The notes under the pieces are model-generated. The model did no database searches. It had not been told where the DNA came from and saw only the letters and a list, made by a program, of their open reading frames with translations. Below are positions 25,464 through 64,000 of a stretch of DNA of 64,000 bases, piece after piece; the first letter of the stretch is position 1, and every line of letters starts with the position of its first letter. This stretch comes from a virus, in IMG/VR virus record IMGVR_UViG_3300047510_003167, positions 8,472 to 72,471 of that record. One strand, written 5' to 3'. A program made the position numbers and the translations under genes.

Positions 25464-26051
25464 TCAGCAAAGGACTCGGCCTTTTTCTGAATAAATGTCA
25501 ACAAAGTTTTGAATGGCTCCCTCAGTATTTTTCATCGGAGGAAGATACACCAATAACGAGGTGCAGGTCTTATGTTTGCCGATTCCCTGACTTGTGTTTT
25601 TTATCAGGTTTGGGGCAGTGCGCAAGATACATACAGGAAAATCAAAGATTTGCTGTTCGTACCGGATCATGTCAGGGCAATTCGTAAAGTAAAGGCCCTG
25701 GTCTACCTGGCGGTTAAACCAAAACTTAAACAACTTACGAAACCACACCGCATGAGAAGAAACCAAAGAAGGTGACGAAGACCGCGTCATCTTCCACTTG
25801 TCGCTTTTCTTGTCCCAAAAGTAGGCCCCACTTGGAGGAAACAAATACACACGTCCGTACCACTCCTGTGCGTTTAATCCATCGTCCAGGGGAGTGTAAA
25901 ATTTTTCAGCTTGAACAAACGTATTTGCAACCTTGGAACTGGCAACATCAAGTTCAATGCCCCCAAGTAAACCGTGCGCAGCGGCAACCAAGTCCTTATT
26001 GGTGATCAGTTCTAAGTCTTCTTTACGGCTATAAATGCTTGGAATAGCCAT
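25464..26051 (-). CDS. Phage Dam-like N6-adenine methyltransferase homologue with atypical catalytic motif
   Basis: IELDVASS..AN....FYT..DDGL...W.GRVYLFPPS (NPPY expected). Confidence 0.65.
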   Translation of the reverse strand: MAIPSIYSRKEDLELITNKDLVAAAHGLLGGIELDVASSKVANTFVQAEKFYTPLDDGLNAQEWYGRVYLFPPSGAYFWDKKSDKWKMTRSSSPSLVSSHAVWFRKLFKFWFNRQVDQGLYFTNCPDMIRYEQQIFDFPVCILRTAPNLIKNTSQGIGKHKTCTSLLVYLPPMKNTEGAIQNFVDIYSEKGRVLC

Positions 26052-53188: not shown

Positions 53189-54508
53189 TCAGCGGCTAAC
53201 CTCTTCCCAATCCATAGAAGCAAGGATATCAGAACCTGCTTGAGCAGAGCTGCAAGCCAACGTAAGTTCTTCAGGAGTACTGGTGAAGCTATTACGCACC
53301 AATTGAAATTTAAACAAAGCTTCTTTTAAAATATCAATAACGCTTGATCCTTGGTTTGAACCAGTTGTGTAGCCACCAGCCAACACACGACCAGAGCCTT
53401 GAGTAAAAGAAGTACCACTGATGTTGTATTCAACAGAAGAATCATCTCCCAAATTAGCCCATGTCCCGCCAGACGTTGTGCCTCCAGCAATGATTTTCCA
53501 GTTGTAATTTGAGTTGTTTGTAATTCCCATGATTGATAAAGCAGTTAAGATAACCACTGCATCAAGGCGAGTTGATTTAAGACGAATAGAAACAACAGGA
53601 TATTCCGTAGAAATATTTGTTAAATCATACGGTGATGCAACAGGAGTACCAATAGAAGACTGTGCTCCACGCAATTCATAACCACCTTCTGAAATTACTG
53701 TTGAACAAACTTGCTTTAATGTGCTACTACTTGCAGTTGTATCAAGATTTGTAATTTCATATCGCAAAGGAAGCGATGCAGTAGTGATATACGTTGATGT
53801 AATTAAATTGGCGTGATGGAAAGAATGGCAGTGAACTAATTCACCATTGATTACAAACCCAGCACGTACCGTGCCCAAGCCTAACCATTCAATATCAAAC
53901 CAAAGGATTTGAGCCTTGGTAATATCTAAAGTAAATCCTGAAGGACCCTTGCCGTCAAGTTTATCAATATTCCAATTTTCTTGAACAGCAATTGTTTCAA
54001 CAGGACTACCAGTTACAGAGCTTCTTTCTACAAAAGAAGGTGAAGATGTACCACTTACTTCAAGGTAAACACCATTTGCTGATCCATAGTAACCAACTCT
54101 TTGACGCAAGTTGGCTTTACCAGAAGCCATTACAAATGTACTCATAATCTGCAGGGATTTCCCTGGTTGATAAGAGCAGACTTTTGTAGTTTCTCTTATA
54201 ACTTGAGCACCAGAAGCTGTAGTTACGTTTAAATTAATTAAGCCTTCACCACTGCTAAACGCATATGTACCACCAGTCCCTGTTGATGTAGCCCACAATC
54301 CATTATCACGATATCGATGACTGGAGTCAAAAAGAGTTAAAGGACTTGAAATACGTAAACGTCCAAATGCATCACCAGCTGTTGAAGTTGGTTTTATAGC
54401 AACAGAATAACCACTAGCTGTAATTACTTCTAATGGATTACCACTAGTTGTTTGTACTTTGATTACTTCATACAGATTAGTATCCGCCGGATCTCTATAT
54501 AAAGGCAT
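53189..54508 (-). CDS. Conserved phage (probable virion) protein
   Basis: 439 aa; DAFGRLRISSPLTLFDS, YQPGKS, EWLGLG.VR.GF. Confidence 0.7.
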   Translation of the reverse strand: MPLYRDPADTNLYEVIKVQTTSGNPLEVITASGYSVAIKPTSTAGDAFGRLRISSPLTLFDSSHRYRDNGLWATSTGTGGTYAFSSGEGLINLNVTTASGAQVIRETTKVCSYQPGKSLQIMSTFVMASGKANLRQRVGYYGSANGVYLEVSGTSSPSFVERSSVTGSPVETIAVQENWNIDKLDGKGPSGFTLDITKAQILWFDIEWLGLGTVRAGFVINGELVHCHSFHHANLITSTYITTASLPLRYEITNLDTTASSSTLKQVCSTVISEGGYELRGAQSSIGTPVASPYDLTNISTEYPVVSIRLKSTRLDAVVILTALSIMGITNNSNYNWKIIAGGTTSGGTWANLGDDSSVEYNISGTSFTQGSGRVLAGGYTTGSNQGSSVIDILKEALFKFQLVRNSFTSTPEELTLACSSAQAGSDILASMDWEEVSR

Positions 54509-54553
54509 TGTCTTTTATGTTTTATTTCTTAATTCTATGACGTACTTTTTAGC

Positions 54554-54769
54554 TTAAAAATAGCCAAGCAATTCTTCTGCATGTTTGTGTTGAGCAAGCG
54601 TATATGCATACCTTTCTCTAAGCACTTCCATAAACCCTTCCGCTATTTCTTTGGCGGACAACCCTTCTTCAAACTCAGTGAGAGTGTCGTGAAAATATTC
54701 TTTGATCCTTTCTTTGGTAAAGACAGGAGCTTTAAAAACAGAAGGCAAGTTGTTAATAGAGTTTGTCAT
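54554..54769 (-). CDS. Hypothetical protein
   Basis: ORF from MTNSINNL. Confidence 0.55.
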   Translation of the reverse strand: MTNSINNLPSVFKAPVFTKERIKEYFHDTLTEFEEGLSAKEIAEGFMEVLRERYAYTLAQHKHAEELLGYF

Positions 54770-54776
54770 TTGTTTT

Positions 54777-54805
54777 AAATAAATAGCGCCCACTGACGTG
54801 AGCGC
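54777..54805 (-). terminator. Possible terminator hairpin
   Basis: Minus strand GCGCTCAC-GTCA-GTGGGCGC then TATTTATTT. Confidence 0.5.
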
Positions 54806-54811
54806 AGGACA

Positions 54812-55087
54812 TCAAACAGCAAGTGCTTTTTCTTTTTCGTACTTTTCAATTGCATCAAGTGCATTAAAGTACTGATCACGGCAATAGGGACCAGCTTCGC
54901 TCAAGCAAAACCGTTCCCACAATCCTGTATAGCAATGATTAGTGGGTTTGTAGATTTGATACATGTGTTCAGCAAAGTCCGCTTTGCGTTGTTCATATGC
55001 AACGTCCCAGTTTTTTAGTTGCTCTTTGAGCCAAGGAGTATCAAAAGCTCCAGTCGTATTAAGTTTCTTAGCCAGATCTTCAGTCAT
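54812..55087 (-). CDS. Hypothetical protein
   Basis: ORF from MTEDLAKK. Confidence 0.6.
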   Translation of the reverse strand: MTEDLAKKLNTTGAFDTPWLKEQLKNWDVAYEQRKADFAEHMYQIYKPTNHCYTGLWERFCLSEAGPYCRDQYFNALDAIEKYEKEKALAV

Positions 55088-55283
55088 TGGCTGGACCTTC
55101 AATTGCAGTAATGCTAGTAAAAACGTTTTTAATCTTGGGGCTAGCTTCCAAAATTAAATCGTCAATTTCATCTTGCAATCGAATGGCTAAGTCTTGAGAG
55201 GTAATGCCTTCAAAAGGATTGTGCTCAATTTCAATATCGACCGCAAATGATACGGTCAACGTTGGAGTAAAAACTTTCTCCAT
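55080..55283 (-). CDS. Hypothetical protein
   Basis: 67 aa in a tightly packed operon. Confidence 0.55.
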   Translation of the reverse strand: MEKVFTPTLTVSFAVDIEIEHNPFEGITSQDLAIRLQDEIDDLILEASPKIKNVFTSITAIEGPAND

Positions 55284-55317
55284 TGGTGGAACGAGGGAAC
55301 CTTAACAGGATAGCAGT

Positions 55318-55578
55318 TTATTTTTCCAGCAACCGCTCAAGGGAATGAGTCTTAGCATTTTCATAATATCCAAGCCGCTCTTGGATAACGTTGTAATAAT
55401 TAATAGAAGCATCAACCATTTCTTCTGCAGTCATTTGCGACGACAGGTTTTCATTTGAGATCATGGCGGCAGTAAGCACGGTTACGCCCCACTCAAGCTT
55501 GGAACCAATGATGGCAGAAAGAGGTGTACCACCACTGGTAAACCCAGCCAATAAGTTGGACAGGTTGTCGTCAGTCAT
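55318..55578 (-). CDS. Hypothetical protein
   Basis: 86 aa, AAGGTG upstream. Confidence 0.6.
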   Translation of the reverse strand: MTDDNLSNLLAGFTSGGTPLSAIIGSKLEWGVTVLTAAMISNENLSSQMTAEEMVDASINYYNVIQERLGYYENAKTHSLERLLEK

Positions 55579-55613
55579 GGCACACCTTATGTATCTATTT
55601 ATTGTATTCGGGT

Positions 55614-55982
55614 TTATTTTTCAACCATTGCCATGTAATACCAGTAAGACCTGGCAGCATTTTGGTGAAACCGTTTGCCCAACAACAGCTTGAGTTTTTT
55701 ATTCTCAAGTTCTTCAGCCTTGCTTTCATGATAAGGAAGCACCTCTTCTTCTCGATCAAGAAGGAGAGACAACTCAATATCATTCATTTGCATCTGAAGA
55801 TTAAAATCATCAATAGCGTGCTGGTGACACGACATCTTGATGTGGGCATCTTCCAAGCCAGTAGGCGGCTCAATCTTCTGATAGAAACTGTCCTGGATAT
55901 TCGGATGCTTGTAGATCCAACCGTGGCTCGGCGTAGATTCGCTTGGAGCGGACTGCGTATTCTTGGAAGACTTTGACGCCAT
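55614..55982 (-). CDS. Hypothetical protein
   Basis: ORF from MASKSSKN, overlapping the 3' end of the Gp157-like gene; start uncertain. Confidence 0.55.
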   Translation of the reverse strand: MASKSSKNTQSAPSESTPSHGWIYKHPNIQDSFYQKIEPPTGLEDAHIKMSCHQHAIDDFNLQMQMNDIELSLLLDREEEVLPYHESKAEELENKKLKLLLGKRFHQNAARSYWYYMAMVEK

Positions 55983-56571
55983 GGGGGACTTTGATTCCTT
56001 TTTGGTAAGCACTGCGGATTGCATCGAGGTTAGGGAGGATTTCAACTTTAGTCTTGGGTTCAGTTCTTTCTTCAAGAACTTCACCACTCATAGAACGTAC
56101 CACAGTTTGTTTGGTTGTGGTGACTTCTTGCTCAATACAAAAGTCATCACGTTCTTTTTCAGTCCAATCCTCTGGCTGCACAGAAAGTTCTACGGTCAGA
56201 TCTTTCTTTTTAACAAGAACAAACTGATAGTTGCGCCCTGTAATCTTGTTGGAATCAAGAGGCAGTGAACGCCGCAACCAATTTAACAAACCCTTCAAAG
56301 AACTTAGTTGTGACTCATGATGTCGTTTGGCTGACACCATAAGTTCAGATTCTTTTTTGATTCGTTCTATAGCATCTTCATGCGAAGCAATCGCATAGTA
56401 GATACGATCAATCTTTTCTGAACGAAGCTCAGCACAAGCCTCCAGCTCAGCTCTTGCCAAGTCTTGAGACTCAGAAGTGAGCAAAGGAAGAGAGCGCTCC
56501 AGGGCACCATAATGTTCGTATAACTTAAGGATGTTTAGTTCCTCAAGTTTAGTCGTTGTGACTTGAGTCAT
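55870..56571 (-). CDS. Siphovirus Gp157-like protein
   Basis: EKID.I...coiled coil...PNLDAIR.A...G.KVP.GV. Confidence 0.7.
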   Translation of the reverse strand: MTQVTTTKLEELNILKLYEHYGALERSLPLLTSESQDLARAELEACAELRSEKIDRIYYAIASHEDAIERIKKESELMVSAKRHHESQLSSLKGLLNWLRRSLPLDSNKITGRNYQFVLVKKKDLTVELSVQPEDWTEKERDDFCIEQEVTTTKQTVVRSMSGEVLEERTEPKTKVEILPNLDAIRSAYQKGIKVPHGVKVFQEYAVRSKRIYAEPRLDLQASEYPGQFLSED

Positions 56572-56580
56572 GGCTTGGTA

Positions 56581-56694
56581 CTAGTTGAATTGAGTTTGAA
56601 TTTTGTTTAATATATAGGACAACAGCACTGCGGCTGCTGTCCAAAGAAGATCTTTGAAAATAGAAAGTGCAGCCGAAAGAAATGATTCAAACAT
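56581..56694 (-). CDS. 37-aa membrane peptide (not in ORF track)
   Basis: MFESFLSAALSIFKDLLWTAAAVLLSYILNKIQTQFN. Confidence 0.5.
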   Translation of the reverse strand: MFESFLSAALSIFKDLLWTAAAVLLSYILNKIQTQFN

Positions 56695-56714
56695 GATGGT
56701 GTGAAATGTAATGA

Positions 56715-56742
56715 TGGTCAGTTTAACGTCATGACCAGGACG
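56715..56742 (-). promoter_or_regulatory. Pseudoknot-like leader motif, copy 1
   Basis: CGTC-C-TGGTCA-T-GACG-TTAAAC-TGACCA, 20 nt before ATG 56694. Confidence 0.7.
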
Positions 56743-56747
56743 TAAAG

Positions 56748-56954
56748 TTACTCAGCCGTATCTAGTTCTTCACCTAACGCTTTTATGCATGCAGCATTGA
56801 GGGCCGACCAGATAAACTCTTGTTGACCCTCTTGGCCCCAACTAGTCCATTCAGCTAGCTCTGGATCATTTTCATCCCATTCAATTTGAATAAGTAATGA
56901 TCCATCTTCTTGATCACTACATTCAATTTTTAATTTGCTCACCCAACTTGTCAT
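56748..56954 (-). CDS. Hypothetical protein
   Basis: 68 aa, DGSLLIQIEWDENDP. Confidence 0.55.
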   Translation of the reverse strand: MTSWVSKLKIECSDQEDGSLLIQIEWDENDPELAEWTSWGQEGQQEFIWSALNAACIKALGEELDTAE

Positions 56955-57078
56955 AATCTTTCAGTGTTGTTTTAGCAAGGTTACGCAAGCCATCAGGAGT
57001 AATGGCTTTTACATTGCGCTTGTCAAGTGCATTGGCAAGTTCTGTAAGAGTTTTGAATACAGTCAAAGACTTAGTCAT
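56923..57078 (-). CDS. Hypothetical protein
   Basis: ATGA-coupled, MTKSLTVF. Confidence 0.5.
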   Translation of the reverse strand: MTKSLTVFKTLTELANALDKRNVKAITPDGLRNLAKTTLKDYDKLGEQIKN

Positions 57079-58013
57079 CGTTTGGATGCAGAAGAAAGTT
57101 GTGGAAGTGCAATGCCAGGAAACGGGATGTAACCCGCTTCCATCATATTGAAAAACAAATCCCACGCATGATCTTGTGTGAAGACTTCCTTAGGTTTGTA
57201 CGTACGCCAATGGCTCAGCGGTGCTTGTGGACCAGACTTGGTATGCAACAAAAGAAAACGACCATCACCAGCATGATCCCCTGGAGGGGCATACCACCAT
57301 GCAACACATTTGTCAGAGACTTGACCTCGTGCTTCATTGCGAACTTCAGTGCGCTTGCACAGCAGTTCACGGTACTTATGGAACCACGTCAGGTGGATGC
57401 ACCATGGCTTGAATCCCTCAATCTCTTGCTGGAACAAAGCCACGTTGTTGAGTTGACGTTGAAAGGACCCGCATGAACAGAAAGGCTCAACGCTGGCGGG
57501 CTTACTTTCGTCTTCGACCAACTCAGCGTCCATATCAATGGGCCGATCTGCAGACCGCAACCCGTCCGGCGCAACCAGATGCCCCAGGTCCGTTTGATCG
57601 GATTGAAGAAGCGTAATAACTTTCTTGGGGTCTGACAGATGGATGAACTTGTCAGCCCAGTGGTGTTGAAGTTTTGCATTGGAAGTTAGATGACCAAGAG
57701 CATGGGAATAATTCCAGCCTTTAAACATGACATATGCATTGTTATGCCATATGGATGGCCCCCGATAGTTAGGGCCAAGATAAGAAAAGAAATCTTTCAG
57801 CCTGTGGGTATACTGCTGAAACGCATCTTTTACTTTTTGTGCTGGAAGTAAACGTTCAGCACCATCCCGATACACCACAACGCAAGAAGCATCTCGGAGA
57901 TAGATACCGGCCACATCCGTCTCATCGAAATCCACAAACGCACGACGAAGATTTGTGCGCGTGTAGATCGATGCTTGTGCCGCATTGAGTTCGGTAAGCG
58001 TTTGGGTTGTCAT
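57075..58013 (-). CDS. SWIM zinc-finger-containing protein
   Basis: CSCGSF...WCIHL. Confidence 0.7.
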   Translation of the reverse strand: MTTQTLTELNAAQASIYTRTNLRRAFVDFDETDVAGIYLRDASCVVVYRDGAERLLPAQKVKDAFQQYTHRLKDFFSYLGPNYRGPSIWHNNAYVMFKGWNYSHALGHLTSNAKLQHHWADKFIHLSDPKKVITLLQSDQTDLGHLVAPDGLRSADRPIDMDAELVEDESKPASVEPFCSCGSFQRQLNNVALFQQEIEGFKPWCIHLTWFHKYRELLCKRTEVRNEARGQVSDKCVAWWYAPPGDHAGDGRFLLLHTKSGPQAPLSHWRTYKPKEVFTQDHAWDLFFNMMEAGYIPFPGIALPQLSSASKR

Positions 58014-58036
58014 GATTGAATTGAATTAGGGTTGAA

Positions 58037-58240
58037 TTAAATGAACAGTTGATCGTCCTCTTGACCTTTGCCAAGAGTACCACGCAGCTTTGCCTCTTGG
58101 TAAGCGTATTTACCAATCTTATAGGTGCCGTAGGCAAGAGCCACCCAGGTCAATGGGTTGGCAACAGCAAGGGCAACTGCTCCACCAATGAGGGCTGCTG
58201 TACTACCAGCTTGGAGTGCAGCCTTTTCTTCGTGTTTCAT
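58037..58240 (-). CDS. Small membrane protein
   Basis: Hydrophobic Ala-rich helix. Confidence 0.6.
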   Translation of the reverse strand: MKHEEKAALQAGSTAALIGGAVALAVANPLTWVALAYGTYKIGKYAYQEAKLRGTLGKGQEDDQLFI

Positions 58241-58289
58241 AATGTTTACTTTTGGGTTTAATGTAGAATTAAATGTACGCTCTAATCAA

Positions 58290-58544
58290 ATGAAAGAGAT
58301 TAAATACGTACCGCTCCAGAAGTTTCAAATAGAACCTTCAATGGAGGATAAGTTTTGGGAAGAAAAGATCAAAAGAACAATTGATGAATGTAACTCGGTA
58401 AGTACCTTAAAAGAAGTAGCAACCCTCTTGGCGAGGATTGCTACTCAAAGACAAGGAATTATTCGTGGGTTAGTTCAAGATATGTTTATCTTTAATGACG
58501 TTGCAGTTGATACTACAGACCTCACCAACCCCGACGTTACCTAA
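58290..58544 (+). CDS. Hypothetical protein, weakly NblA-like
   Basis: EPSMEDKFWEEKIKRTI...LKEVATLL...RQGIIRGLV; lone + strand gene with TAGAAT upstream. Confidence 0.55.
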   Translation: MKEIKYVPLQKFQIEPSMEDKFWEEKIKRTIDECNSVSTLKEVATLLARIATQRQGIIRGLVQDMFIFNDVAVDTTDLTNPDVT

Positions 58545-59645
58545 TCAAAGGCTGCTGTCTTCACCGGTGTCCGGATCACGAGCAGATTGCAGAGCTTTGA
58601 TATCTCCATCGCCACGAGTGACGGGAAGAATCTCAACTCCTGGGGCAATACCATAAGCACCACCCAACTTCTCAGCATCTTGACGAGAGTGCTGATTGAT
58701 GTAGTCCTGGAACAGCTCTTGGAATTTCCAAGTAGTTTCCCGATCTTCATCAGGAATAGACATGCGGTTAAGTGATTCAACCGCAGTTTCTTGATCGCTG
58801 TAATCAGGAATGTCAAACGATTCAATGGCGCAGATTTCTACGTTGTTTGCACCTCGCATTTCATTTGCAAGCACAGGTGCAAAAACCGTGGTTGCATAGA
58901 ACTTTTCATTGAAGCTCAGCGGCACTTCAGCGTCCAGTGCCTTGCTCAGGCACTTGGACATTTCCTTTTCGTACAGCTTGACCTTCTCAGATACATCAGT
59001 ACCATTAAGCCCTTTCAAGGTCAGGACCATGGGAATCTTGTGGGCCCGCTTGTTGTCACTGGTAAGGATGTAAACCAGATACTTGGTACGCACGCTGTAC
59101 TTGCGCTTGTACATCTCACCTTTGCTGTTGGCAAGATCAGCGGCAATCTTGTCAGCTTCCCAAAGTTCTTTGACCTCAGGGTTTTCAAAGGTACCAATCG
59201 TTTGCCTCATCCCTGTGGTTTCTTCCACCATGAGGGGAGAACGCAGCAGGATTTGCAGGCGAGGCTCAGTAAAGTTAAGGCCCTCCTCAACAGAAGTGTT
59301 AGGGGCCATACCAAAAGTTTGCTTATAGTTCCAAATAACAGAACCTTTAGCAAACTGATCTTCAGTTGCAGACCACCCGCAAGTATCTAGATCAGAGTTA
59401 CGAATGAACCAACCACGCACCTTGGATTTGTTAAGGGGCTGAATGGTTACAAGATTCTGGTAGCCAGAAACAAACTCTTTGGATTGAAAAAGCTTGAATG
59501 ATTCAATCCCGCGAGTTGCTAGGGATGCAGTTTTCTTCACAGTCATTTTCGTAGGAGGGTTAAAGGAAGGTTCAGGTTTTTTTGTTTCAGCTTCGATGTT
59601 ATCCATCCAAGCTTCACTCATCATGTCAACCGGAGTTGAAGTCAT
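58545..59645 (-). CDS. Conserved cyanobacterial/cyanophage protein (DUF5895-like)
   Basis: PRLQILLRSPL, TKYLVYIL..DNK.AH.IP.VLTLKG; acidic tail; next to SSB. Confidence 0.65.
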   Translation of the reverse strand: MTSTPVDMMSEAWMDNIEAETKKPEPSFNPPTKMTVKKTASLATRGIESFKLFQSKEFVSGYQNLVTIQPLNKSKVRGWFIRNSDLDTCGWSATEDQFAKGSVIWNYKQTFGMAPNTSVEEGLNFTEPRLQILLRSPLMVEETTGMRQTIGTFENPEVKELWEADKIAADLANSKGEMYKRKYSVRTKYLVYILTSDNKRAHKIPMVLTLKGLNGTDVSEKVKLYEKEMSKCLSKALDAEVPLSFNEKFYATTVFAPVLANEMRGANNVEICAIESFDIPDYSDQETAVESLNRMSIPDEDRETTWKFQELFQDYINQHSRQDAEKLGGAYGIAPGVEILPVTRGDGDIKALQSARDPDTGEDSSL

Positions 59646-59666
59646 AATCAGTTCAGGGTTTGGTAA

Positions 59667-59695
59667 TGAGTCTTTTAACGTCATCCTCCAGGACG
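59667..59695 (-). promoter_or_regulatory. Pseudoknot-like leader motif, copy 2
   Basis: CGTC-C-TGGAGGA-T-GACG-TTAAAAGA-CTCA, 21 nt before ATG 59645; stem 2 weaker. Confidence 0.6.
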
Positions 59696-59700
59696 GGCGC

Positions 59701-59931
59701 TCAGTCTAAACTCAAAAGAGGCTCAGCCTTAGCTTTGGCACAACTCTTAAGATAGTCCTCATGTTCTTCAAGTAACTCGCGCATTGCTTCGTAAATGCTT
59801 TCACGGGCATAGCCCATGGCAAGCATAAACTGCACAAAGTGTTCCATTACTTCATCAGTAGTCACACCTTGAGACTCAAATGAGATTGATAAGTCTTCAT
59901 TTGAGTGTTGAAATTTAATTGTGCTTTTCAT
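59701..59931 (-). CDS. Hypothetical protein
   Basis: 76 aa, EVMEHFVQFMLAMGY. Confidence 0.65.
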   Translation of the reverse strand: MKSTIKFQHSNEDLSISFESQGVTTDEVMEHFVQFMLAMGYARESIYEAMRELLEEHEDYLKSCAKAKAEPLLSLD

Positions 59932-59940
59932 TTACTAAAA

Positions 59941-60747
59941 TCAGAATGGTTCTTCATCAAGTGCAGGGGCTGTGCCGTACTGACCAGGCAGCTCTGGCAG
60001 ACCACCAGATGCTTTGTTCCAGGGATCAGACTCATCCTCTGCCGTCTTGCCACCCCACAGGCTGCTGACATTGCTGTCAGATACCACAGTGGTTTGGGGT
60101 TGAATAGGCTTAGGACCATCGCTTGCTTTAGGTGCAAGCGTCATGGACACCAATTGAATCTTGGTGATTTGTTTTTTCTCCTTGGATTCTTTATCAACCC
60201 AAGCATCAGTAACCAATCGCCCTTGGATAGTCAGGCCCACGCCTTTACGCGTGAAGTTAACAAGAAGTTCAGCGTTGTTTAACTTATCTTCACTTGAATT
60301 AATTGCGTAGAAGTTAAACAGATCTGCTTGGTTCCTACCAGTATTAACCGATAGGGTTTGATTGCAGATCATCAAACCATCCGCCGTTGTCTTGAAGGCA
60401 CGGGCATCCGCATGATCGATGTCCTTGACGCACCGACCGCTAAGGATAACGGTATTAAAGATCGGAAACTGATCATTGACTGTTGCAATGATTCCGCCGT
60501 GTAGCGAATACGTCCTGGTTTCCAGGTCAAAACGTAGCTTGGCACCATGAATGTAAATCTGTGCATTCTTGGGCGTACGGCTAAAGCGTTCAGCATTCTT
60601 GCCATAAACATTGAGTTCGATTGGAGTTGGTGCTTTGTTGCCAATAGGAGGCAGCAGTACACTGCATCGCATGGCTGTGGAAGTAGCGCTGATGTAAACC
60701 TCGCGAGGTGCTTCGGCAGTTTGAGCGCAAACAGAAACAAAGTTCAT
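59941..60747 (-). CDS. ssb: Single-stranded DNA-binding protein with two tandem OB folds
   Basis: NTVILSGR..KD...RKG..LTIQGRLVT..WVDK and acidic DEEPF tail; N-terminal half repeats the pattern. Confidence 0.85.
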   Translation of the reverse strand: MNFVSVCAQTAEAPREVYISATSTAMRCSVLLPPIGNKAPTPIELNVYGKNAERFSRTPKNAQIYIHGAKLRFDLETRTYSLHGGIIATVNDQFPIFNTVILSGRCVKDIDHADARAFKTTADGLMICNQTLSVNTGRNQADLFNFYAINSSEDKLNNAELLVNFTRKGVGLTIQGRLVTDAWVDKESKEKKQITKIQLVSMTLAPKASDGPKPIQPQTTVVSDSNVSSLWGGKTAEDESDPWNKASGGLPELPGQYGTAPALDEEPF

Positions 60748-60767
60748 GTGTTCAGAAGTTGGGTGTA

Positions 60768-60794
60768 AGGCAGTTTAACGTCATACCTGGGACG
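60768..60794 (-). promoter_or_regulatory. Pseudoknot-like leader motif, copy 3
   Basis: CGTC-CC-AGGTA-T-GACG-TTAAAC-TGCCT, 20 nt before the ssb ATG. Confidence 0.7.
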
Positions 60795-60904
60795 CAGCAA
60801 AGCCTAGTATGTATTTTCTTTTAATGATTGAAAAGTTAAAAATTGTCACATTAAAAAACGCCTTGAGAACAAAGCGTTTTCAAATGGATATTGATTTACT
60901 TTAA

Positions 60905-61372
60905 TCAAAAATTACCCATCATTTGAGCAAGGCCACCAGCGTAAGTGTCACGACGGCCTTCTAAAGATTTTTGACGTTGTTGACGACCTTTAGAGCCTTC
61001 AAGTTTTTCTAACAGTGTTTGAAATTTTTGTGTATCAAAATAATCATCTTTTGCATTGCCTGCTTGGCCTTCAGTAATTCCTTGTCCTTCCCACGTACGC
61101 CCTTCATTTTTTCCCCAGTTTTCATAATGAGTTTGAGCCAACTGATCATCGGTGAATTGACCAGCATCAGTATAGTTTGTACCTAATCGTTGATTAGTAA
61201 GATTAATCCAGTTTTGCTCCCAACCACTTGTATCTTGTAATCCCCGACTATTAAGCCAGTCTTTATAAGTAGTGTTGAAAGTAGTTCCCGTATCTATTCC
61301 AGCTTGTTGTGCATCATCAATGTAAATTTGTGCATCTTCATATTTATTAAGATAATCTTGCCAGTTAGCCAT
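60905..61372 (-). CDS. Hypothetical protein
   Basis: 155 aa; HYENWGKNEGR motif similar to HYTSQGRPAGLR in 19455-22124. Confidence 0.65.
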   Translation of the reverse strand: MANWQDYLNKYEDAQIYIDDAQQAGIDTGTTFNTTYKDWLNSRGLQDTSGWEQNWINLTNQRLGTNYTDAGQFTDDQLAQTHYENWGKNEGRTWEGQGITEGQAGNAKDDYFDTQKFQTLLEKLEGSKGRQQRQKSLEGRRDTYAGGLAQMMGNF

Positions 61373-61458
61373 GATTTTTTTTTATTTATGTTAATTCTAA
61401 CTTGTGTTAATGGGTTTCAGACCAGTTGTTTTTAAAGCAGCATGCCTAAAACAAATCT

Positions 61459-61632
61459 TTATTCTTTAACTGTTGGTAATGGATCACCTAAACTTTCAAG
61501 CCAACACAACATGCACCAATTACCTTCATAGCCTCTAACAGTGCTATTAATGTATTGATCATGTGTTCCATGTTTGGGACAAACAATTTTTAATTTAGAT
61601 TCATTAAATGCAAAAAGTTCAGTTGATTCCAT
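61459..61632 (-). CDS. Small Cys-rich hypothetical protein
   Basis: CPKHG...WCMLCW. Confidence 0.5.
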   Translation of the reverse strand: MESTELFAFNESKLKIVCPKHGTHDQYINSTVRGYEGNWCMLCWLESLGDPLPTVKE

Positions 61633-61642
61633 GTTTAATACA

Positions 61643-63493
61643 TTAGTGGGTTTCTGACCAGTTGTTTCCAACGCGAGAGTCACCTTCAATCTTGCATTGG
61701 AATTTAAAAAATTCTTGAGCCTGCGGAAAGGCTGCCAATGCATGGGTTTGAATGGTTGCAGTCAATGCTGGTGAACAACTGAGTTGAATCTCGTCATGGA
61801 TCATAGCGTTCTGAACCCAGTCTTGGCCATGGACCAGGCCAATCTCATTTAAATTTTTATGTACGTTGATGACTACTTGTTTCATTAACACTGCGCCTGC
61901 TGCTTGTAATAAAACATTTAATCCTTTGAATTCAGATCGGCAATACAAGGCACGTCCATCTAGACCACGCAGATAACCACGATTTGTAATTGTATTTGAC
62001 AGTTTTGTTTTAAGTTTCTTTAATGCTGGTACACCATTCATAAATGAATTAATTGCAGTACTTCCCATTTGACGTAGAAGTATTTCATCTTTTTCATTCG
62101 GATCAATAATTGTTCCAGCTTTTAATGCACCACATCCATACAGCAATCCATACAGTAAACGCTTACTAATATCCCTGGTAGCCACACCAAATTGTTCTTG
62201 GTTATACGTATGAATATCAATTGATTCATCCGTGACAATAGATGCGTAGTGCCCGTCATCCCATAGTGCAAGATAACCAGCAAGACACCTAAGTTCTAAA
62301 GCCTTGGCATCTACACCAATCAAATTCCATCTTTGGGGCGGATGAAATAAAGCACGGCATTCTTTACCGTAAGGACTATAGGAAGCAGGAACCTGACCCA
62401 TATTTGGATTACGGTGAGCACAACGGCCAGTAATACAACCGTTAGTAATAAGATCACCATGCATACATCCGGTGTTGTTGTTAACTAATTTGAGCCAGGC
62501 ATTGTTGCCTTCTGCTATTTGACCAAGGCGTTTCTTGACAAGCATGTATTCAGCCAAGGGCTGTGCTTCTGGATATGGCAGTGCAGCCAAGATGTCGTCA
62601 TCTAATACTGGATTGCCTTTCTCTGTAGTTTTCTCAGGCACCCATCCATATTTTGTCTGGAGCCTATCGACAATTTGTTGACGTGATCCAGGATTAAATT
62701 CTTCAAAGTGAACTTTGGTAAACGGTTCACCTTTAACATAACCACGGTTCTTGTTGTTTACCTTGGGGATAAACACCGTTTCATGTTTGATAGGTGGAAA
62801 AATTTCCTTTAGCTTTGTTTCAAATTCGCTTTGTTTTGCTCGGAGATCATCCACCAAATCAAGAGCTGCATCCACATCAAAAGGAAAACCTGCTCTAATT
62901 TGCTGGTTAATTGCCAAAGCGAAGTCGTGCTCGAGTCGCAATGCATATTGTGCATAGTTTTCTTGTTGAATCTTTTGAAATAGTTTGTGGGTAATAGTAA
63001 CGTCTTGCCTGCAATACTCAGCCATTTCTTCTGAGTATTCTTTAAAGTCTTTGAATTCAATTTTGTTATCAGATAGCCGATAACCCCAGGCTTTGAGCGA
63101 TGCTGATCCGCGCAGTTTCGATGGAACCTGCGGATATTGTTCTGAGTCAAGATCATCAAGAACCTCTTTGGGCCAGATCAATCGTGTACAAATGAGTGTG
63201 TCAATAATGCGTGCTTTGCAGTCAATTGAATGCAGCTTTTGCAGAACTGGAATGTCATAAAAGATTATGTTGTGACCAATGAGTACGTCAGCGGTAGCCA
63301 GATGCTCAAGAGCAGTAGCAATACTGTCAGGCCCATAAGTAAAAGTTTTGTTTCGACAGATATCATGTATGACAACGCAATGGACAACCGTAACGTCATC
63401 ATACAAATTATCCGTTTCAATATCAACAATCAACCAACATTTATTTACATCACTGGGATGCATTTCAAATGTAGATTCTTTGACTGTTGACAT
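61643..63493 (-). CDS. Family A DNA polymerase, T7-like
   Basis: Exo DIET, GHNIIFYD, YCRQDV; pol motifs DAKALELR, RDISKRLLYGLLYG, IHDEIQ. Confidence 0.95.
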   Translation of the reverse strand: MSTVKESTFEMHPSDVNKCWLIVDIETDNLYDDVTVVHCVVIHDICRNKTFTYGPDSIATALEHLATADVLIGHNIIFYDIPVLQKLHSIDCKARIIDTLICTRLIWPKEVLDDLDSEQYPQVPSKLRGSASLKAWGYRLSDNKIEFKDFKEYSEEMAEYCRQDVTITHKLFQKIQQENYAQYALRLEHDFALAINQQIRAGFPFDVDAALDLVDDLRAKQSEFETKLKEIFPPIKHETVFIPKVNNKNRGYVKGEPFTKVHFEEFNPGSRQQIVDRLQTKYGWVPEKTTEKGNPVLDDDILAALPYPEAQPLAEYMLVKKRLGQIAEGNNAWLKLVNNNTGCMHGDLITNGCITGRCAHRNPNMGQVPASYSPYGKECRALFHPPQRWNLIGVDAKALELRCLAGYLALWDDGHYASIVTDESIDIHTYNQEQFGVATRDISKRLLYGLLYGCGALKAGTIIDPNEKDEILLRQMGSTAINSFMNGVPALKKLKTKLSNTITNRGYLRGLDGRALYCRSEFKGLNVLLQAAGAVLMKQVVINVHKNLNEIGLVHGQDWVQNAMIHDEIQLSCSPALTATIQTHALAAFPQAQEFFKFQCKIEGDSRVGNNWSETH

Positions 63494-63516
63494 GGGTGAA
63501 CAAACGTAATACTTGT

Positions 63517-63750
63517 TTACTTACGGAAGCGTCCTTCATCATGAATGGAAAGATCTTCAGCAGCCAAGGTGCTTTCGTTCTTTAGGATCCAATTCAGAAT
63601 TGAGGCAGCACCTGCGCGATATGGATGGCTGAATACTTTATTCAAAGCCACATCTGAATCTAATGGAACCAACTGAAAAGAGTTGGTTTGATTACAGGCT
63701 GTAATGGCATGAGGCACACCATCTTTCCATGTAGCAATAATGTAACTCAT
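63517..63750 (-). CDS. Hypothetical protein
   Basis: ORF from MSYIIATW. Confidence 0.55.
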   Translation of the reverse strand: MSYIIATWKDGVPHAITACNQTNSFQLVPLDSDVALNKVFSHPYRAGAASILNWILKNESTLAAEDLSIHDEGRFRK

Positions 63751-63807
63751 AAATAAAAAGGAAGAACGGATAAATGATATCCGCTCTTCCTCCAAACGCA
63801 AGTGCCT

Positions 63808-64000
63808 TTATGCAACCTTAAGCTTTGGCTTGTGGTATCCCACAAATGCTCCTTGCTTCTTACGTAGAGACAGGGCCTTGCTTGCAGCAGAGCCAGCCCT
63901 CTGGGATCCATGGACCAAGAGTGCGAAAGGCTTATCGCCTAGACAATGGCTGTCATCATGGTCAATCTCAAGGCCGCGTGTAGCCGCCTCTTCTTCTGTG
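63808..64000 (-). CDS. C-terminus of a phage protein (Gp88-like), 5'-truncated
   Basis: ...EEEAATRGLEIDHDDSHC..KPFALLVHGSQ...VGYHKPKLKVA stop. Confidence 0.55.
   Translation of the reverse strand, partial: TEEEAATRGLEIDHDDSHCLGDKPFALLVHGSQRAGSAASKALSLRKKQGAFVGYHKPKLKVA

Follow-up and report, generated by a model that had tools for sequence, protein, structure and literature searches.

A recurrent H-type RNA pseudoknot in the gene leaders of an S-EIV1-like cyanophage shares its core with the plant-virus RNA coremin

The DNA considered here is a stretch of 64,000 nucleotides (the window) that makes up bases 8472-72471 of the 72,471-bp virus record IMGVR_UViG_3300047510_003167 from IMG/VR; the nearest isolate is Synechococcus phage S-EIV1, with a DNA polymerase identity of 72.7%. 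Three short elements lie in its replication module, all on the minus strand, in the leaders of ssb, of a DUF5895 gene and of a peptide gene followed by a Gp157-like gene (Table 1). An earlier note on this DNA had picked out these three copies and named the genes behind them, and both hold. The copies share the pattern CGTCC-N5/6-ATGACGTTAAA, which as RNA reads (N)GUCC-N5/6-AUGAC(N')UUAAA. The string CGTCCN{4,9}GACGTTAA has three matches in the window against none in each of 100 dinucleotide-preserving shuffles, and in the whole record again three, on the reverse strand only. A covariance model run over the record with its filters off returned the same three knots, and the next match scored 15.1 bits.

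Table 1. Positions of the three pseudoknots and of neighbouring features, in window coordinates
Feature	Position	Strand	Sequence, match or basis
Pseudoknot copy 1	56742-56715	-	CGTC C TGGTCA T GACG TTAAAC TGACCA; model 50.7 bits
Copy 1, stem 1 (S1)	CGUC 56742-56739 with GACG 56730-56727	-	sequence
Copy 1, loop 1 (L1), junction and loop 3 (L3)	L1 C 56738; junction U 56731; L3 UUAAAC 56726-56721	-	sequence
Copy 1, stem 2 (S2), 6 bp	UGGUCA 56737-56732 with UGACCA 56720-56715	-	sequence
Pseudoknot copy 2, the weakest	59695-59667	-	CGTC C TG(G)AGGA T GACG TTAAAAGA CTCA; model 25.1 bits, E 0.0011
Copy 2, S1	59695-59692 with 59682-59679	-	sequence
Copy 2, S2, 4 bp and a bulged G	U-G(G)-A-G with CUCA 59670-59667	-	sequence
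Pseudoknot copy 3	60794-60768	-	CGTC C CAGGTA T GACG TTAAAC TGCCT; model 46.6 bits
Copy 3, S1	60794-60791 with 60782-60779	-	sequence
Copy 3, S2, 5 bp including one G-U	AGGUA 60788-60784 with UGCCU 60772-60768	-	sequence
Terminator-like hairpin and T-run	60853..60880	-	by eye; about 60 nt 5' of copy 3, followed by an A/T-rich stretch
ssb, 268 aa	59941..60747	-	PF00436, 1.6e-08; phrog_44, 3.6e-25; starts 20 nt after copy 3
Open reading frame (ORF) upstream of copy 2, 76 aa	59701..59931	-	stop 5 nt 5' of copy 2
DUF5895 gene, 366 aa from ATG 59645	58545..59645	-	PF19247, 5.7e-13; starts 21 nt after copy 2
ORF upstream of copy 1, 68 aa	56748..56954	-	stop 5 nt 5' of copy 1
37-aa peptide gene (MFESFLS...)	56581..56694	-	ORF; starts 20 nt after copy 1
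Gp157-like gene, cistron after the peptide	55870..56571	-	PF05565, 9e-08

The element is a true H-type RNA pseudoknot, as the earlier note had proposed, and both of its stems covary. Its parts run in the order S1 (4 bp), L1 (C), S2 (5-6 bp), junction (U), S1', L3 (UUAAAC) and S2', and the invariant core is CGUC-C...A-U-GACG-UUAAAC-U. When the loop was compared with the bases after TTAAA(C/A)(T/G) in 83 gap-free instances from exact-pattern IMG/VR matches, the double-sided changes in S2 numbered 93, where shuffles gave 25.2 +/- 6.1 and none of 500 came as high; sliding the partner as a control left 5-22. Matches without an S2 were kept in this count (22 of 107 have three or fewer contiguous pairs), and the roughly one quarter of exact-pattern matches that lack the stem are probably chance. 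A covariance model was then built from the exact-pattern instances, so that the copies found later were not forced by the pattern. Its 85 distinct matches, which are the basis of the frequencies given below, show 99 double-sided changes in S2 against 28 +/- 10 in shuffles, with the five inner pairs formed at 96.9%; the covariation on which the note had made its RNA reading depend is present in the wider alignment.

The S2 pairings described by the note for the three window copies stand. Its statement that S1 is invariant is true inside the window but not among relatives, where the outer pair covaries (C-G 76, U-A 4, G-C 3, U-G 1 of 84, and 0 unpaired) and the forms CGUC/GACG, UGUC/GACA, GGUC/GACC and AGUC/GACU are found in related records. 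The knots are co-oriented with the genes that they precede: 32 of the 33 listed model matches in five related records lie on one strand per record, the exception being an 11-nt partial match with an E-value of 0.43. By the covariance model, each of five related phage records holds 4-8 copies; S-EIV1, one of the five, holds 7, at record positions near 25926, 29176, 30520, 33609, 38816, 39535 and 43019. Within the window, copy 2 has its L3 extended to UUAAAAGA, while the loop and tail of copy 3 are found again 5' of ssb in five other viral loci.

A literature search with the sequence string led to coremin, an Xrn1-resistant RNA (xrRNA) of plant RNA viruses that is printed as GUCCGAAGACGUUAAACUAC and numbered C1 to C21 (Dilweg, Olsthoorn et al. 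2019, 2023; cited here and below from the portions of the text available). Coremin consists of a hairpin, hp1, with the stem C1G2U3C4/G9A10C11G12 and the loop C5G6A7A8, a spacer from U13 to C21, and then hp2, which is a small hairpin. In the phage form the core, CGUC-C-[N5]-A-U-GACG-UUAAAC-U, agrees with coremin at every conserved position but the second base of the loop. The hp1 stem CGUC/GACG corresponds to S1 and C5 to the invariant L1 C; the coremin loop ends in A-D and the phage loop in A-U; and spacer positions U13-U19, UUAAACU, correspond to L3 and the first base of S2.

The published mutants of coremin allow this agreement to be followed position by position. In hp1, which can have 3-5 bp and is CGUC/GACG in BNYVV (beet necrotic yellow vein virus), structure outweighs sequence, and the loop-closing pair must be C-G, with U-A tolerated and G-C abolishing resistance (Dilweg, Olsthoorn et al.). 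All 85 distinct phage matches have NGUC/GACN', and the loop-closing pair is C-G in all 85. Phage knots vary where BNYVV coremin tolerates mutation: the outer stem pair, which BNYVV mutants show to be dispensable (Dilweg, Olsthoorn et al.), covaries in the phage knot. The coremin spacer UUAAACUAC is conserved, with A15-A17 essential, a U14A change both tolerated and natural, and a tolerant 5' end (Dilweg, Olsthoorn et al.). The corresponding phage counts out of 85 are U 80, U 83, A 85, A 85, A 85, C 78 and U 79, so that the equivalents of A15-A17 are invariant; the spacer's 5' end is C or G in 5 of 85, and the U14A-type variant UAAAAC, GACGUAAAAC, occurs among the phage knots. Past U19 the phage sequence is S2 and hence variable. 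The coremin loop has the consensus YGAD, or YGNNAD in 6-nt loops (Dilweg, Olsthoorn et al.); the phage loop has 8 nt and U or C as its second base, while its first base is C in 85 of 85 and its last two are A in 85 of 85 and U in 79 of 85, with C in 3 and A in 3 of the remainder. In the pseudoknot model for coremin, loop nucleotides 6 and 7 pair with 20 and 19, and a Watson-Crick variant, xrRNA_WCC, resists Xrn1 (Dilweg, Olsthoorn et al.). The phage S2 starts in just this register, A with U in 79 of 85, and is extended to 5-6 Watson-Crick pairs. From this comparison of sequences, the balance tips slightly towards the knot being what corresponds in phages and bacteria to the coremin xrRNA, with an extended Watson-Crick S2 and without hp2.

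Canonical coremin was itself found at 38 loci of IMG/VR, for the most part on short contigs of RNA viruses, where TAC and a hairpin follow it; the two forms can thus be compared directly inside a single database. In addition, the short-loop coremin-like strings CGTCTGAAGACGTTAAAC and CGTCCGAGGACGTTAAAC were seen on viral contigs of about 5-50 kb (L223, L224, L245 and L252; L248 and L249), four of which are 31-50 kb long and thus presumably belong to DNA viruses. In the literature searched on coremin or xrRNAs in connection with phages, prokaryotes or RNase J, no paper placed the motif in phages or bacteria, although the unnamed candidates in the supplement of PMC10690425 could still include it, and the 2023 coremin papers do not contain 'phage', 'bacteri' or 'prokaryot' (Dilweg, Olsthoorn et al. 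2023).

The exact-pattern scan places the knot in at least 106 IMG/VR viral loci. With a stricter pattern, 76 loci were found in bacterial genome contigs from about 10 phyla; one genome per species was scanned, about one chance match is expected by our own arithmetic, and groups were taken from record titles. Bacillota account for 47 of these loci, followed by Patescibacteria (6), Desulfobacterota-type records (6, one of them a CRISPR spacer), Cyanobacteria/Melainabacteria (4), Bacteroidota (4), Chloroflexota (2), Pseudomonadota (2), and Zixibacteria, Spirochaetes and Actinomycetota (1 each), with 2 unplaced. The 3' context of the knot depends on the phylum: a U-tract stands right 3' of S2 in 60 of 200 unique instances, mostly from Bacillota. 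In Bacillota prophages a terminator-like hairpin often precedes the knot, and a scaffold gene start with a Shine-Dalgarno (SD) sequence follows 40-110 nt downstream. Tandem knots occur in four loci.

Downstream genes were collected as 114 non-redundant ORFs starting no more than 130 nt 3' of a knot, with matches to several families possible. Head scaffolding is the largest class (PHROGs with 18, 11, 6, 5, 2, 2 and 2 members), followed by SSB (14), PcfJ-like (10), GP88 (8), DUF5895 (6) and HNH endonucleases (4). The note had suggested a covariance-model search for gene-context enrichment and had read the knots as a regulon of genes handling single-stranded DNA (ssDNA); these counts do not support such a regulon.

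Several of these leaders have features of their own. In Bacillota prophages, a second small hairpin and then (A)CGU(U)AAAA(C) can lie between the knot and the scaffold SD, e.g. GUCU-ACAG-GACGUAAAAC; this was seen in ten loci and others besides, and the hairpin resembles a short-loop coremin-like copy just 5' of GAAAGGAG. In seven bacterial loci (from Zixibacteria, Anaerolineales, Deltaproteobacteria, Bacillota, Desulfomonile, Spirochaetes and Geobacter), a conserved small Cys-containing ORF (MKRFxIPRxAHCxEGC..., about 16-24 aa) has its end within the knot or just 5' of it, the stop being the UGA of AUGACG in five of the seven. The neighbours of this ORF look metal- or transport-related rather than phage-like (a YHS-like MTQCPVCGM start, an MFS transporter, a methyltransferase). 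In the Zixibacteria, Bacillota and Desulfomonile loci of this group, a hairpin resembling an intrinsic terminator lies about 20-100 nt past the knot, so a short knot-to-terminator RNA could persist there. In a metagenome-assembled genome (MAG) of Bradymonadales (L144:1700-1900), a CRISPR array of no fewer than 42 repeat copies has a knot within one of its spacers, so a host has acquired this spacer from a knot-bearing phage region. Four further loci have the exact core directly 3' of a tRNA gene with merely 2-3 S2 pairs, and these may be chance matches or reflect an attachment-site context.

The spacing of the knot to its neighbours was analysed in 118 instances with at least four of six S2 pairs. 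An ORF ends within 60 nt 5' of the knot in 87 of these and in the other 31 none does. The gap from stop to knot has both its mode and a sharp lower bound at 5 nt (38 of 87), with shorter gaps in only 3. On the other side, 57 of 108 instances have 19-23 nt between S2 and the ATG; just 3 have less than 19 nt, as outliers at -1 and 11 nt, and the distances are spread across all three frames. The two lower bounds, 5 nt and 19 nt, suggest that the knot is set just clear of the footprints of terminating and initiating ribosomes. In a compact genome it would then be placed as near to both ribosomes as its folding allows.

Copies 1 and 2 in the window follow this rule, beginning exactly 5 nt past the stops TAA 56750-56748 and TGA 59703-59701, as the note had observed. 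It was also correct in giving spacers of 20, 21 and 20 nt from the end of S2 to the ATG; they contain 0, 2 and 1 G and none of GGAG, GAGG or AGGA. A G-poor, SD-less spacer is not knot-specific, however: an SD-like motif is present in only 7 of 37 knot-free genes of the S-EIV1 record. In the leaders of S-EIV1 (KJ410740, 18696-44540) and of the window at 54000-64000, SD sequences are hardly used, and G-poor, CA-rich runs (caactcaactc) are found for the most part; several leaders of this lineage have UGAUC or UGAAC 2-8 nt 5' of the ATG.

The start of the DUF5895 gene illustrates a complication for annotation. An AUG within copy 2 (59682-59684, minus strand) is in frame with this ORF and would give a 379-aa product from 59684, and ORF lists start the gene at 59684 because of this ATG inside the knot. 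The start of the S-EIV1 homologue is the equivalent of 59645, and the conserved N-terminus also favours ATG 59645. The AUG conserved within the knot may thus make ORF callers mis-start genes, of which copy 2 is an example. The MFES... peptide start is found behind a knot in six other loci and in S-EIV1. Between the DUF5895 gene and the minus-strand genes that come next, a 128-aa ORF at 58158-58544 with no Pfam or PHROG match lies on the plus strand, within the otherwise minus-strand replication module.

A promoter and terminator scan over 54-64 kb of the window returned nothing at the three knot sites, and promoter-like sites numbered 11 against 18.5 in shuffles. The simple terminator scan missed the hairpin at 60853..60880, which was recognised by eye. 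Copy 3, about 60 nt downstream of this terminator-like hairpin, is probably near the 5' end of its own transcript.

We also looked for described RNAs that could account for the element. No Rfam family was matched at any knot, either in the window at 54-64 kb and in the Bacillota prophage locus L028 (150-500), both searched at E <= 10, or in sets of 15 and 12 loci at gathering score; the known family that would have cost the element its novelty did not appear. The only true Rfam matches in knot-bearing loci were a HEARO RNA in one and two tRNAs in another, and a sub-threshold small-RNA match at 60851-60894 of the window probably reflects the terminator-like hairpin. The HEARO RNA (111 bits, L053:3692-3906) lies on a 95-kb viral contig. 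A BLAST search of a 41-nt Bacillota-type copy against named phages gave weak partial matches (Latilactobacillus, Streptococcus Javan336 and a Vibrio phage). Pistol ribozymes were rejected, with no match in the window and L028 at E <= 10 or in 27 loci at gathering score and no P2/P3, as were GP20-a and GP20-b (RF02991, RF03003), with no match in L028 at 150-500 (E <= 10) or in 15 loci at gathering score. A -1 frameshift or readthrough signal was set aside because by eye no X XXY YYZ precedes the three copies and the frames are inconsistent, a sigma-70 promoter overlapping the loop because of the covariation, and an RNase P or tRNA-like substrate because there is no RCCA after S2. A Rho utilization (rut) site was dropped as well; to our knowledge, cyanobacteria have no Rho.

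With the fold and the shared core in hand, a function can be proposed by analogy. We favour, at a probability of roughly 0.55, that the knot acts without protein as a roadblock, halting 5'->3' RNA decay by RNase J, and perhaps RNase E scanning, and that it would so shield the downstream cistron. The knot would be transcribed inside polycistronic early or middle mRNAs and fold unaided into a directional mechanical obstacle for enzymes going 5'->3' on RNA. The main candidate for such an enzyme would be RNase J of the cyanobacterial host, possibly joined by RNase E scanning in its 5'-end-dependent mode. Decay arriving from upstream would halt about 1 nt before S1. The downstream cistron (ssb; DUF5895; peptide and Gp157-like) would be spared, its 5' end capped and protected by the knot, and its translation would begin at a start of its own that lacks an SD and lies about 20 nt farther on. 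In other phage lineages, the same device could lift scaffold mRNA above that of the upstream portal and head genes. The placement of the knot before genes with products needed in bulk fits such a roadblock. Coremin stops Xrn1 one nucleotide before hp1 and does so in vitro, on purified transcripts and enzyme (Dilweg, Olsthoorn et al.), and a flaviviral xrRNA that is unrelated in sequence has been reported to hold up bacterial RNase J1 in vitro, an argument that the block is a general, mechanical one. Of 20 motif-bearing genomes, 14 have a match to RNase J (TIGR00649), as does Synechococcus elongatus, used as the control.

A number of observations weigh against a roadblock of this kind. No RNase J match was obtained in 6 of the 20 genomes, namely one chromosome from Zixibacteria and MAGs from Bacteroidota (3) and Pseudomonadota (2). 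Even though some of these are incomplete MAGs or mis-binned phage contigs, RNase J cannot be the sole partner. For coremin, hp2 right after the spacer is strictly required for Xrn1 resistance, the Watson-Crick variant included (Dilweg, Olsthoorn et al.). The phage knots have no such hairpin: the 30 nt past S2 are mostly unstructured, and G-poor in the cyanophage class, averaging -1.8 and -2.5 kcal/mol in the two main classes (185 of 200) and reaching -5 or below in 32 of 200. Published coremin loops have 4 to 7 nt and larger loops lost activity (Dilweg, Olsthoorn et al.), while the phage loop has 8; the second base of the phage loop is U or C, so that the G of YGAD is not kept. The U-tract after S2 in 60 of 200 instances looks like an intrinsic terminator, which the roadblock leaves unexplained. 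Finally, the likeness to coremin rests on the core letters and not on a match of the whole model: the phage-built model gives canonical coremin just 13-16 bits, with 8 of 30 sources at E <= 1, low scores that are explained by the missing S2.

Other explanations of the knot have to be set beside this one. A ribosome-directed element, which would block or park ribosomes and so insulate cistrons, or provide a standby or enhancer site in place of an SD, is unlikely. It could draw on coremin, which stalls scanning ribosomes and stimulates -1 frameshifting, also in an E. coli reporter screen (Dilweg, Olsthoorn et al.), as well as on the exact 5-nt gap after stops, the distance of about 20 nt to starts and the missing SD. 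Yet SD-less, G-poor leaders are usual in this lineage, the knots of Bacillota prophages lie well 5' of starts having strong SDs, 31 of 118 copies have no ORF that ends within 60 nt on their 5' side, and no slippery heptamer was seen 5' of the three window copies, with knot-to-ATG distances in all three frames. A ligand-sensing riboswitch or conditional terminator is distinctly improbable, although, according to one paper, pseudoknots found in several phyla usually do sophisticated biochemical tasks. Such a switch would be a mini-aptamer like preQ1-I whose folded state ends transcription in the U-tract class or tunes translation, and the compact architecture with an A-rich L3, the core kept over about 10 phyla between covarying stems, and the phylum-dependent 3' context with its U-tracts would all suit it. 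L1 and the junction have only one nucleotide each and leave little space for a pocket, however; a phage can carry up to 8 copies before unrelated genes, the cyanophage class has neither an alternative pairing nor a terminator, and no Rfam riboswitch family was matched in the window at 54-64 kb or in L028 at 150-500. Moreover, the core equals that of coremin, whose in vitro activity is described with no added ligand named in the text available.

The earlier note had itself proposed an RNA regulon of ssDNA-handling genes read by SSB, or else a translation or stability element. A protein operator, at which SSB or another phage protein would repress translation in the fashion of T4 gene 32, is very improbable. 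Every S-EIV1-like record examined has one copy 5' of ssb, and the arrangement of a pseudoknot followed by unstructured RNA, before a set of genes inside one replication module, is as such an operator would have it. The wider survey speaks against the SSB regulon: SSB is downstream in just 14 of 114 ORFs and scaffold genes, from no fewer than 7 PHROG families, prevail, the knot is present in unrelated phages and in chromosomes of about 10 bacterial phyla without an evident common protein, the SSB here belongs to PF00436, and the invariant bases are those of a plant-virus RNA. The stability part of the note's alternative comes close to the roadblock favoured here. We give an equally slight chance to a processing signal or small self-cleaving ribozyme that would cut polycistronic transcripts between genes. 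Known phage-associated ribozymes form a similar intergenic punctuation, and the knot has a P1 hairpin, a loop pseudoknot and an A-rich linker, which presumably resemble the 5' half of pistol ribozymes. The Rfam models for pistol, hammerhead, twister and hatchet gave no match, though, and there is no P2/P3 or cleavage-site helix, as nothing is conserved outside 28-34 nt. A site acting as DNA, whether promoter, operator or ssDNA signal, is scarcely credible. The loop does resemble a -35 hexamer (TRRNYA), and some Bacillota copies come right after terminators, where a promoter is needed nearby, but the compensatory changes in both stems indicate base pairing rather than protein-DNA contacts, the strand of the knot is fixed with that of the genes, and the sigma-70 scan was blank at the three sites.

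A wider claim, which we make tentatively and would not yet prefer to its denial, is that bacteria and DNA phages use a genuine xrRNA of about 30 nt with the coremin core as a protein-free stop for RNase J, and perhaps for RNase E scanning or ribosomes, and thereby set the relative abundance of cistrons in operons (ssb, scaffold and others). The xrRNA literature cited, in the portions available, describes xrRNAs only from RNA viruses of eukaryotes, and prokaryotes would gain their first natural xrRNA if the knot works in the same way. Phages would then have a simple means, needing no protein, of protecting chosen cistrons, which would explain how ssb or scaffold mRNA could outlast the upstream genes of the operon. 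A knot with a close terminator, as in several of the loci with the small Cys-rich ORF, would leave stable fragments similar to subgenomic flavivirus RNA. For RNase J and RNase E biology the knot would be a defined natural obstacle, and bacterial mRNAs could be stabilised with it as a portable module of 30 nt. The pseudoknot model of coremin is supported by the 85 distinct covarying sequences from phages, which also reveal the positions that the fold keeps fixed; if the kinship is real, natural sequences would here for the first time back the coremin pseudoknot fold, which is still unsolved. That plant viruses and phages have an identical core would then mean either that a fold under extreme constraint was found twice or that both share a very old element.

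Among known systems, the leader of T4 and T2 gene 32 (SSB) is autoregulated through a compact pseudoknot followed by unstructured RNA. The phage knot is likewise a compact H-type pseudoknot 5' of ssb with unstructured RNA up to the start codon; unlike that leader, it is not restricted to ssb, keeps a fixed core across phyla and precedes an SSB of family PF00436. One paper notes that Rfam has no model for the T4 gene 32 pseudoknot. The GP20-a and GP20-b motifs and six further candidate RNAs precede phage GP20 (scaffold) genes (Weinberg 2017; Fremin 2023, PMC10690425; from the available portions). The GP20 motifs share with the knot a place 5' of PF06810 scaffold genes in Caudovirales of Bacillota, but are 107 and 72 nt long and lie no more than 25 nt from the gene; the knot may overlap one of the six further candidates. 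Frameshifting pseudoknots of luteoviruses such as beet western yellows virus (BWYV) have the same layout of S1, L1 (C), S2, junction U, S1, A-rich L3 and S2, a likeness that the authors of the coremin work note for their own RNA (Dilweg, Olsthoorn et al.). They differ from the phage knots, which have no upstream slippery site and inconsistent downstream frames, and the BWYV pseudoknot fails to stall Xrn1 even with hp2 added (Dilweg, Olsthoorn et al.). The xrRNAs of flaviviruses and tombusvirids would have in common with the knot the proposed directional, protein-free block of 5'->3' exonucleases, while they are larger ring-forming folds (a three-way junction or a stem-loop with a pseudoknot) without sequence likeness. 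The closest system is coremin itself. The phage form differs from it in its longer loop (8 nt against 4-6), which pairs through 5-6 Watson-Crick bp with a 3' segment, in having no hp2, and in a target enzyme that cannot be Xrn1; it occurs 5' of genes in DNA phages, prophages and bacterial chromosomes, as opposed to the 3' untranslated regions (UTRs) of RNA viruses. Beyond the core, the two have in common an intergenic or UTR position on the sense strand and an occurrence in tandem copies, which has been reported for coremin as well (Dilweg, Olsthoorn et al.).

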